From the NCBI RefSeq assembly GCF_013315695.1, contig NZ_CP054353.1: 64,000 bases of DNA; one strand, written 5' to 3'. The notes beneath the pieces were generated by a model, which saw only the letters and a program-made list of their open reading frames with translations, was not told where the DNA came from and made no database searches. Numbering within the stretch: the stretch's first letter is position 1; every line of letters begins with the position of its first letter. Positions 56,193 through 62,492 of the stretch are shown piece by piece. The translations under genes and the position numbers were made by a program. Source of the stretch: Escherichia coli (GTDB taxonomy: Bacteria; Pseudomonadota; Gammaproteobacteria; Enterobacterales; Enterobacteriaceae).

Positions 56193-57143
56193 TTTAAAAT
56201 TCGACGAATTAACGATATTTGTCTGATTAATAATCAGACCTGATTAATGTTGGTGTATTTATTACACCAGCATTAATTTTCCTGGGGATGTATCTTCCTG
56301 TTCATTTAAGGTCAACTGCCTGACGTTTCTCTCCGAATATTCCATTATATTAATGTTGACTTGTTGACCAGCTTCGCCCTGTATGCTGGCATCAACTCTA
56401 TTTTAGACTGAACACGTCACTCAGTTTCCTCCCTTTGCGACGCAGCCTGCATTTACACTCAAACTATTAAGATGATAAATGTGGTAAATCTGTTGGTACT
56501 GGCATAAAAACGTTTACGCCACAGGAACGGCCTGATCCATCGGTAACCCCATCGCCGACGTTCGAGTGCCAGTTAGAGTAACGCGCACAGATGACTGAAT
56601 GCAGTGCCCTGGCAAAGAGGCCATCGTTCCTGTGACAACTGGCAGTCTTCGTTTAACTTCACTTAATTTGGCTCTTAGGGGGCTTACCGGACATGATGAC
56701 GTACTTACACCTGTTTAATTTTTCATCACTTATTGGAGTGAACACCCATAACCATTTTGTGCGGCATGTTAACCCATTAAAACACCTTACTGATTGGCAA
56801 ATCATCTTTAATTATGACTCATGATAGTTTTATATTCTATTTCTTATCATTTAAACTTGTTTTTTTACTAGTCCATTACACAACACATTAAGACTATTCC
56901 TAACACCTCAGGGCAAAGTTCCTGGCTAATATAAAATGCAAGTAAGAATTGAACGTTATATTGCCAATAACCTTATGAAACTGAATGTCTTTTTCTTCTT
57001 ATCAAAAAAGCAATATTTTCATTTTTTGTAAATATTGACTTAACCATGGAATTCATTTTCTGTTCACATATTGACACTCATCAGGAAAAAAACATAAATT
57101 TAAACCTAATCGAAATAATTAAAACTTAGGTAATGACTCCAAC

Positions 57144-57647
57144 TTATTGATAGTGTTTTATGTTCAGATAATGCCCGATGACTTTGTCATGCAGCTCCAC
57201 CGATTTTGAGAACGACAGCGACTTCCGTCCCAGCCGTGCCAGGTGCTGCCTCAGATTCAGGTTATGCCGCTCAATTCGCTGCGTATATCGCTTGCTGATT
57301 ACGTGCAGCTTTCCCTTCAGGCGGGATTCATACAGCGGCCAGCCATCCGTCATCCATATCACCACGTCAAAGGGTGACAGCAGGCTCATAAGACGCCCCA
57401 GCGTCGCCATAGTGCGTTCACCGAATACGTGCGCAACAACCGTCTTCCGGAGCCTGTCATACGCGTAAAACAGCCAGCGCTGGCGCGATTTAGCCCCGAC
57501 ATAGCCCCACTGTTCGTCCATTTCCGCGCAGACGATGACGTCACTGCCCGGCTGTATGCGCGAGGTTACCGACTGCGGCCTGAGTTTTTTAAGTGACGTA
57601 AAATCGTGTTGAGGCCAACGCCCATAATGCGGGCTGTTGCCCGGCAT
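57144..57647 (-). CDS. insB: IS1 transposase InsB frame
   Basis: 167 aa, identical to copy 1. Confidence 0.9.
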
Positions 57648-57841
57648 CCAACGCCATTCATGGCCATATCAATGATTTTCTGGTGCGTACCGGGTTGAGA
57701 AGCGGTGTAAGTGAACTGCAGTTGCCATGTTTTACGGCAGTGAGAGCAGAGATAGCGCTGATGTCCGGCGGTGCTTTTGCCGTTACGCACCACCCCGTCA
57801 GTAGCTGAACAGGAGGGACAGCTGATAGAAACAGAAGCCAC
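57566..57841 (-). CDS. insA: IS1 InsA
   Basis: 91 aa, identical to copy 1. Confidence 0.9.
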
Positions 57842-60180: not shown

Positions 60181-61813
60181 CTTACTGATAGCGATGATAA
60201 TCTTTGCGCTAATCTGGCCTGCAACCGCGCTCAGAGCGGCAGTGAGCAAAACAACCTGGGCGGATGCTCCGGCACGCGAGTTTGTGTTTGTCGAAAACAA
60301 CTCAGACGACAACTTTTTCGTCACGCCTGGCGGGGCGCTGGATCCGCGCCTGACCGGTGCCAACCGCTGGACCGGTTTAAAATACAATGGTTCAGGAACC
60401 ATCTATCAGCAAAGCCTCGGCTACATTGATAACGGTTACAACACCGGCCTTTATACCAACTGGAAGTTTGATATGTGGCTGGAAAATTCACCAGTTTCAT
60501 CTCCTTTAACTGGCTTGCGCTGCATCAACTGGTACGCTGGGTGTAATATGACCACCAGTCTTATCCTGCCGCAAACCACCGACGCCAGTGGATTTTATGG
60601 CGCGACGGTGACCAGCGGCGGCGCGAAGTGGATGCACGGCATGTTGTCAGACGCGTTTTACCAGTATCTGCAACAAATGCCCGTCGGCAGCAGCTTTACA
60701 ATGACCATCAATGCCTGCCAGACCTCTGTGAACTATGATGCCAGCAGCGGCGCACGCTGTAAGGATCAGGCCTCCGGCAACTGGTATGTTCGCAACGTCA
60801 CCCATACGAAAGCAGCAAATCTGCGGTTGATAAATACCCACTCGCTGGCGGAAGTATTTATCAACAGCGACGGAGTACCGACTCTGGGCGAAGGGAACGC
60901 CGACTGCCGGACGCAAACCATCGGCAGCCGTTCAGGATTAAGTTGTAAGATGGTTAACTATACCCTGCAAACAAACGGGCTCAGCAACACCTCAATCCAT
61001 ATCTTCCCGGCGATCGCCAACTCGTCGTTAGCCTCGGCCGTCGGGGCGTACGATATGCAGTTCAGTCTGAATGGCAGTTCATGGAAACCGGTGAGCAATA
61101 CCGCCTATTACTACACCTTCAACGAGATGAAGAGCGCAGACTCGATCTATGTTTTCTTCTCGAGCAACTTCTTTAAGCAGATGGTGAACCTGGGGATCAG
61201 CGATATCAACACCAAAGATCTGTTCAACTTTCGCTTTCAGAACACCACATCACCGGAGTCTGGCTGGTATGAATTTTCTACCTCCAACACGCTGATTATC
61301 AAACCCCGTGATTTCAGCATCAGTATTATCTCCGATGAATATACTCAGACACCGTCGCGGGAGGGATATGTTGGCAGCGGCGAGTCGGCACTCGATTTCG
61401 GCTATATCGTAACCACCAGCGGTAAAACAGCTGCCGACGAAGTGCTGATCAAGGTGACCGGACCCGCGCAGGTGATTGGCGGGCGCTCCTATTGTGTCTT
61501 CAGCTCCGATGACGGTAAGGCGAAAGTACCGTTCCCGGCGACACTTTCCTTTATTACCCGCAACGGAGCTACAAAAACCTACGATGCCGGGTGCGATGAT
61601 AGCTGGCGGGATATGACCGATGCGCTGTGGTTGACCACACCGTGGACTGATATCTCTGGCGAAGTGGGGCAGATGGATAAGACCACAGTCAAATTTTCGA
61701 TTCCAATGTATAACGCCATTTCTCTGCGTACGGTAGATGATAACGGCTGGTTTGGCGAAGTCAGCGCTTCAGGAGAGATTCATGTTCAGGCGACGTGGCG
61801 TAACATTAACTAA
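60170..61813 (+). CDS. ecpD: ECP (Mat) fimbrial tip adhesin EcpD
   Basis: 547 aa with signal peptide; position after ecpC. Confidence 0.85.
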
Positions 61814-62492
61814 GGCCCTGCTGACAGTGGTCTGTATGCTGGCGGCACCTTTGACACAGGCGATTTCGGTCGGTAATCTGACATTTTCGCTGCCGTCCGA
61901 GACTGACTTTGTCAGCAAACGTGTAGTGAATAACAACAAAAGCGCGCGGATATACCGTATTGCCATCAGTGCTATCGATAGCCCGGGCAGCAGTGAATTG
62001 CGCACTCGACCGGTGGATGGTGAACTGCTTTTCGCCCCCCGCCAGCTGGCGTTGCAGGCTGGTGAGAGCGAGTATTTTAAATTTTACTATCATGGTCCAC
62101 AGGATAACCGCGAGCGCTACTACCGGGTCTCATTTCGCGAGGTCCCCACTCGCAACCAGACAAGACGTAGCCCAACCGGCGGCGAGGTCAGCACAGAGCC
62201 GGTGGTGGTGATGGATACCATTCTGGTAGTACGACCACGTCAGGTTCAGTTTAAATGGTCCTTCGATCAGGTGACCGGAGCGGTAAGTAACACCGGCAAC
62301 ACGTGGTTTAAGCTACTGATTAAACCAGGATGTGATTCGACCGAAGAGGAAGGCGATGCCTGGTATCTACGTCCGGGAGACGTGGTTCATCAGCCTGAGT
62401 TACGTCAGCCGGGGAATCACTATCTGGTCTATAACGACAAATTCATTAAGATTAGCGATTCCTGTCCGGCTAAGCCCCCTTCGGCGGACTAA
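61782..62492 (+). CDS. ecpE: ECP (Mat) fimbrial chaperone EcpE
   Basis: 236 aa from ATG at 61782 (AGGAGAG SD) with signal peptide. Confidence 0.8.

Follow-up and report, generated by a model that had tools for sequence, protein, structure and literature searches.

The E. coli common pilus operon ecpRABCDE lacks ecpR, ecpA, ecpB and the 5' end of ecpC at an IS1 junction

The window analyzed here is a stretch of 64,000 nucleotides from Escherichia coli (contig NZ_CP054353.1), which contains genes of ecpRABCDE, the operon for the E. coli common pilus (ECP), also called the Mat fimbria. The question raised by this locus is whether it can still give rise to a pilus and, if not, what has happened to it. 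A first-pass annotation had proposed that a copy of insertion sequence 1 (IS1) abuts the interior of ecpC, that ecpR, ecpA, ecpB and the beginning of ecpC are missing, and that the strain is ECP-negative unless a second locus exists. Our analysis shows that, very probably, an IS1-associated deletion inactivated the chromosomal operon in an ancestor of the lineage to which the window belongs.

The end points were determined by alignment with the intact locus of strain MS20675 (L002). Position 57128 of the window corresponds to L002 8917 and position 57897 to L002 11264 on the same strand; exactly 2,346 bp of the intact loci (L002 8918-11263) are missing between them. The missing segment comprises most of the ecpR leader, ecpR, ecpA, ecpB and the first 242 nucleotides of ecpC. 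The DNA on the left of the IS1, up to 57128, is ykgL-ecpR intergenic sequence and stops 149 bp before the ATG which RefSeq assigns to ecpR. Base 57897, the first after the IS1, is nucleotide 243 of the 2,526-nucleotide ecpC and the third base of codon 81. The proposed contact between IS1 and internal ecpC sequence is hence correct to the base; the alignment with the intact operon likewise confirms the loss of ecpR, ecpA, ecpB and the 5' end of ecpC, and the interval that had been given, 57129-62492, extends exactly from the left end of the IS1 to the stop codon of ecpE. The genes for the LuxR-type regulator EcpR, the major pilin EcpA and the chaperone EcpB are absent from the window and have no megablast-level match in the related genome MSB1_4I, and a search for the deleted 2,346 bp across the 64-kb window found no match anywhere.

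The element at the junction is a canonical IS1. Its imperfect terminal inverted repeats match at 18 of 23 positions, the insA and insB frames both match the NCBIfam IS1 transposase model NF033558, and an A6C motif (AAAAAAC) for -1 frameshifting is located at position 307 of the element; RefSeq names it an IS1A transposase with programmed frameshift. A target-site duplication of 8-9 bp was sought at this copy and none was found, the left flank being TAAAACTTA and the right flank GGATGATGG; simple IS1 insertions at the ecp locus of four other strains do carry one (Table 1). The missing duplication favours a rearrangement; it does not count against the identity of the element, since it is expected at a deletion junction. 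The flanks are colinear with those of intact loci: ykgL and ecpC follow each other on either side of the IS1 in the native order and orientation, relatives carry the lost DNA as one continuous stretch, and there is a single insertion sequence at the junction. The native order and orientation of both flanks therefore argue for a deletion with IS1 at its scar and not for an inversion.

What is left of the operon is well preserved. The reading frame of 'ecpC is open over 760 codons with no internal stop and differs by 3-5 residues from three intact EcpC proteins. The full-length usher (841 amino acids, with signal peptide) is not encoded; the remnant specifies residues 82-841 only, beginning at D82. 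It has neither a start codon nor the signal peptide, and its mature N-terminus is shortened by about 50 residues. The first in-frame ATG is more than 30 codons into the remnant and the sole in-frame start upstream is a TTG within the IS1. The Pfam domains TcfC (residues 283-350) and CooC_C (residues 732-824) of the full protein are both inside the retained portion. RefSeq annotates the ecpC of MSB1_4I and of a second related genome, AF3, as 'incomplete; missing N-terminus', beside an IS1A transposase. With 1014.7 bits, EcpD exceeds the cutoff of 900 for the NCBIfam EcpD equivalog NF047911, and EcpE differs by 2-4 residues from the EcpE of intact loci. In AF3 (L007), ecpE carries a 1-bp deletion at the equivalent of window position 62133 and its annotation records a frameshift; either the stranded genes are starting to decay or a short T run was misread in sequencing.

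A junction next to an IS1 has to be viewed with caution. At least 40 identical IS1 matches occur in the genome, and all 768 bases of the ecp copy are identical to those of the IS1 at 53626-54393, 2.7 kb away; this is a setting prone to short-read misjoins, in which reads collapsed or misjoined over the repeats could hide an intact ecpRAB upstream of ecpC. We therefore compared the locus with 5,426 complete E. coli genomes (drafts were not part of the set). The IS1-ecpC junction and the intergenic-IS1 junction are each uninterrupted in only two of them, MSB1_4I, a rectal swab isolate from Australia (NZ_LR898874.1), and AF3, a blood culture isolate from the UK (NZ_OZ547117.1). These two complete assemblies, from different isolates and countries, share both junctions exactly. 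The window differs by a few single-nucleotide polymorphisms (SNPs) and indels from both. Furthermore, a flgI homologue at 14569-15684 (371 amino acids) is intact in the window; MSB1_4I has a 228-bp gap there and the gene is annotated as a pseudogene. By these differences and the intact flgI, the window counts as a further, third sequence from this lineage. In MSB1_4I a megablast-level search revealed no other match to the ecpRAB segment. An assembly artefact, the objection foreseen in the first-pass annotation, is scarcely conceivable and effectively excluded by the identical junction in two independently sequenced isolates. The fact that AF3 and MSB1_4I both carry the deletion implies that it is older than their divergence.

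A true junction could also have arisen by an IS1-mediated inversion or translocation, with ecpR-ecpA-ecpB-ecpC' surviving beside another IS1 elsewhere in the chromosome. Events of this type are at hand: one end of an IS1-IS1 inversion in the same lineage is 3.5 kb distant, and in strain EC17 an IS1 16 bp from the site is joined to the distant yahE-yahF. The native order and orientation on both sides of the IS1 (ykgL, IS1, ecpC) speak against such an origin. So does a test for a second copy, in which the 2,346 deleted bases were fused to a 3.5-kb marker region of the window and the places matching this chimeric query were counted. MSB1_4I has two matching places with the marker alone and still two with the chimera; in other genomes the number rises from one to two. 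Either part of the query is matched in 5,095 genomes, the ecp part in 5,012 and the marker in 563. The deleted segment has no megablast-level match in MSB1_4I, and no second ecpRAB was found there. A translocated front half is consequently hardly plausible, and the place count supports, for this nearly identical complete genome, the absence of the second locus that had been held in reserve. We thus return to a deletion.

The next question is whether the remnant is really promoterless, as had been claimed. A distance of 121 bp between the upstream ecp promoter and the ecpR start has been reported (PMC10038029); this start is counted from the GTG of the 196-amino-acid EcpR (PMC3900561). With the ecpR GTG at L002 9018, transcription should begin at L002 8897 or about position 57109 of the window; the position is based on these two secondary statements. 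The best promoter match of the region lies just upstream in the retained DNA (Table 1). On these grounds the ecp promoter and operator are most likely retained; the deletion would start at about +21 and the promoter would now read into the IS1 after about 20 nucleotides. In work by Martinez-Santos from 2012, EcpR is reported to bind at two TTCCT boxes that lie far upstream of the ecp promoter, and the TTCCT pair at 56897-56923 is a candidate for these boxes. If the numbering starts from the downstream ATG instead, a weaker match, TTAAAA-17-TATATT (L002 8908-8936), becomes the promoter and its -10 element is deleted. With either numbering the remnant is cut off from its promoter by an antisense IS1. 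The word promoterless is therefore only partly apt: the genes are indeed separated from a promoter by the IS1 and have lost the activator EcpR, but a probable promoter persists in the DNA on the left of the element. As the mapped promoter probably lies in retained DNA, a more fitting description is that the IS1 separates the remnant from its promoter and that the activator is gone. The prediction of an ECP-negative strain is not affected by this change.

The products lost are the activator EcpR, the shaft pilin EcpA, its chaperone EcpB, and the signal peptide plus about 50 mature N-terminal residues of EcpC. From the known workings of chaperone-usher systems, an usher without signal peptide should be unable to reach the outer membrane, so that pilus assembly would be impossible at any level of transcription. 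With no pilin, no activator and no exportable usher the strain almost certainly cannot make ECP. IS1 is strongly polar in both orientations. The genes ecpD and ecpE are presumably stranded behind it and transcriptionally silent.

Both of these genes are nevertheless intact, and the probable promoter and the TTCCT boxes are kept; furthermore, partial ecp operons cause phenotypes distinct from those of a full deletion in another strain (PMC10038029). One could imagine that the remnant is alive, with ecpD and ecpE expressed from the retained promoter or by read-through from the IS1 and maintained for a role which is independent of EcpA and EcpC. We consider this very improbable. The activator is deleted, the known polarity of IS1 acts both ways, and a promoter scan found no outward-facing promoter at the IS1 end adjoining ecpC. 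Without the usher EcpD is unable to reach the surface. In AF3 ecpE is already frameshifted, and the isolates are so few substitutions apart that intact reading frames are expected by chance. The interpretation that ecpD and ecpE are stranded and silent is hence preferred. The lineage, known from an Australian rectal swab and a UK blood culture, is accordingly predicted to be unable to make the common pilus. This prediction extends to vaccine and typing schemes based on EcpA, because a polymerase chain reaction (PCR) for ecpA would score these isolates negative and one for ecpD positive.

The product of the event is compatible with several routes. In the favoured one, which we rate slightly better than even, IS1 would first have made a simple insertion in the AT-rich intergenic region between ykgL and ecpR; intramolecular transposition of this copy into ecpC would then have generated a classical IS1 adjacent deletion. 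Alternatively, the first insertion may have been in ecpC with a deletion extending leftwards, or two direct IS1 copies may have recombined. The end product is identical for all three routes, which are indistinguishable here. The intergenic-first route is favoured because the GC content is 17% in the left junction DNA and 50% in the right junction DNA, and because independent IS1 insertions occur at three other sites of this intergenic region in other strains; the order of events is deduced from these features.

A few points weigh against the scenario of an IS1 deletion that left a silent remnant. A precursor, with IS1 at either junction and the operon intact, was not found among the complete genomes. 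The test for a second copy is an indirect place count, has the sensitivity of megablast, and was done on MSB1_4I rather than on the exact genome of the window. Finally, read-through from the retained promoter into ecpD and ecpE may occur.

IS1 has visited the ecp locus repeatedly (Table 1). Besides the insertion in MIN12, an IS1 inside ecpR is present in about 14 other genomes. The IS1 copies seen at the locus are all in one orientation, which the search design favours. We considered whether the IS1 of the window is the insertion upstream of ecpR that is common among the top matches (for example MS20675). This was rejected; that copy is located 226 bp more to the left, shows only 93% identity and is flanked by an 8-bp duplication of its own. 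The IS1 of EC17 (L011 4135-4902) is 16 bp left of the insertion point in the window and is joined to 'yahE-yahF-yahG instead of ecp; it is an independent rearrangement at nearly the same intergenic site in another lineage. Loss of the segment is not rare in the species: 414 of the 5,426 genomes have no match to the deleted DNA and 486 do not reach 80% coverage, so that it is lacking in about 8-9% of complete E. coli genomes. Surveys of Shiga toxin-producing E. coli have also reported loss-of-function alleles among the ecp genes (PMC9729726). A literature search for IS1 at ecp or mat returned general virulence-gene inventories only.

Taken together, the event is an ordinary one, a well-delimited and unremarkable pseudogenisation that is already flagged in public annotation. 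A more far-reaching interpretation is that ecpR and its control region are a recurrent IS1 target under selection, with IS1 hits as adaptive switches that remove EcpR/MatA and the pilus, similar to insertions upstream of flhDC. In this IS1-rich lineage the loss would then belong to an ongoing reduction of surface structures by insertion sequences, as in Shigella, rather than to neutral decay. We regard this interpretation as unlikely. The significance of the locus is local; it provides a clean worked example of how IS1 reshapes a 60-kb neighbourhood, and it neither opens nor settles a general question.

Table 1. Positions of the ecp remnant, its control region and IS1 copies in the window, and of IS1 insertions at the ecp locus of other strains.
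Feature	Position	Strand	Basis or remark
'ecpC, 5'-truncated usher pseudogene, codons 82-841	57897..60180	+	alignment to intact ecpC
ecpD, tip adhesin, 547 amino acids, intact	60170..61813	+	NF047911 equivalog
ecpE, second chaperone, 236 amino acids, intact	61782..62492	+	mechanical open reading frame start 61737
Complete IS1 (IS1A type), replaces 2,346 bp of the ecp locus	57129..57896	-	768 bp
insA	57841-57566	-	inside IS1 57129-57896
insB frame	57647-57144	-	inside IS1 57129-57896
Two TTCCT boxes, 17 nucleotides apart; candidate EcpR operator boxes upstream of promoter	56897..56923	+	motif location
Probable native ecp promoter, TTGACA-18-TAAATT	57071..57100	+	promoter scan, 10/12 matches, best match of region
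Second identical IS1, same orientation, 2,735 bp upstream; not part of the ecp deletion	53626..54393	-	no duplication
E1, simple IS1 insertion	-817 from ecpR		duplication CAAACTGTT
MS20675, simple IS1 insertion	-375 from ecpR		duplication CACCTCAG, 8 bp
GF60, IS1	-541 from ecpR		
MIN12, simple IS1 insertion	inside ecpR		duplication CTTTATCTG
BEN5202, simple IS1 insertion	inside ecpC		duplication GGAAAAAG

The order of the window is Flag-2 lateral flagellar cluster, dinB, proBA, thrW, thrW island, IS1, ykgR-ykgM-ykgO-ykgL, IS1, 'ecpC-ecpD-ecpE, ykgJ and yagU. The IS1 upstream of the ykg genes is flanked by GGGTGATTA on the left, at the 3' end of a P22-type gp20 gene, and by GAATAAACG on the right; these are split 9-bp duplications. 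In MSB1_4I both are found again, flanking an inverted IS1 that adjoins a P22-type gp16 and LysR, and AF3 keeps the native order of LysR, IS1 and ykgR onward (loci compared: L008 23274-24041, L007 18658-19425 and L009 25439-26206). This flank pattern and the native order in AF3 indicate that two simple IS1 insertions recombined and inverted roughly 25 kb on the branch leading to MSB1_4I and the window. We also examined the two IS1 copies of the window as a marker of a cointegrate or composite element; a comparison of outer with inner flanks gave no 9-bp match, and the upstream copy is the inversion junction. The two copies are identical and direct, and they bracket ykgR-ykgM-ykgO-ykgL, which include zinc-independent L31 and L36 paralogues. 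The interval 53626-57896 is thus formally a 4.3-kb composite-transposon-like unit, prone to loss by IS1-IS1 recombination.

The P22-like DNA-ejection gene of gp20 type (a 472-amino-acid open reading frame at 52212-53630) ends inside the IS1, which replaces its natural stop; the partner gene gp16 is no longer in the window but about 25 kb distant, with reversed orientation. The gene belongs to an island (41000-53625) integrated at the tRNA-Thr gene thrW (40784-40859), which carries an integrase, a helix-turn-helix regulator, an antirepressor, an Ash-family protein, a TOPRIM/DUF927 primase and P22-type ejection genes; its make-up suggests a mosaic with parts from satellites and prophages. Its 3.5-kb primase region occurs in 563 of the 5,426 genomes, with a second copy or paralogue in MSB1_4I. 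To the right of the island a gene for an NADH:flavin oxidoreductase (54514-54816) has an internal deletion of about 0.9 kb (L002 4922 joined to 5816), a scar without an insertion sequence; RefSeq annotates only a 237-nucleotide fragment. The Flag-2 cluster in positions 1-27000 looks complete. Between its genes, at 16000-16310, lies a tandem array of a 117-bp unit (2.6 copies, 92% matches) with palindromic units resembling repetitive extragenic palindromes or bacterial interspersed mosaic elements (REP/BIME).

The chromosomes NZ_LR898874.1 and NZ_OZ547117.1 each have at least 40 IS1 matches; the median for the species is about 10 places per genome. The surplus points to an expansion of IS1 in the lineage, with the ecp deletion as one of several IS1-driven changes. 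Outside the window, an IS1 joins a truncated lacA to ykgG in MSB1_4I and AF3 (L007 971-1738, L008 5586-6353). The region which lies between these genes in K-12 (bet, yah, prp, cod and cyn genes) appears to be missing in both sisters, another IS1-associated loss, and AF3 has further losses beside IS1 copies.

In comparison with the intact ecpRABCDE of MS20675, E1, GF60 and K-12, the locus occupies the same chromosomal place between ykgL and ykgJ-yagU. Its remaining genes are 98-99% identical to theirs and its EcpD is above the equivalog cutoff; the difference is that ecpR, ecpA, ecpB and codons 1-81 of ecpC are gone and an IS1 stands in their place. The archetype of such an event would be the IS1 deletions of the gal region, reportedly described by Reif and Saedler in 1975. 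Like these classical adjacent deletions, the ecp deletion retains a single IS1 copy with one original flank and one newly formed junction; a target duplication is missing, and the lost DNA is an uninterrupted block next to the element. It differs from a clear-cut case in that no precursor was found and that recombination of two direct IS1 copies leaves the same product. With the other IS1 events at the ecp locus it shares the element family and the site, and those within genes are likewise annotated as pseudogene-forming. However, these are mostly simple insertions with target duplications that removed no DNA, while the event in the window is a deletion over four genes.

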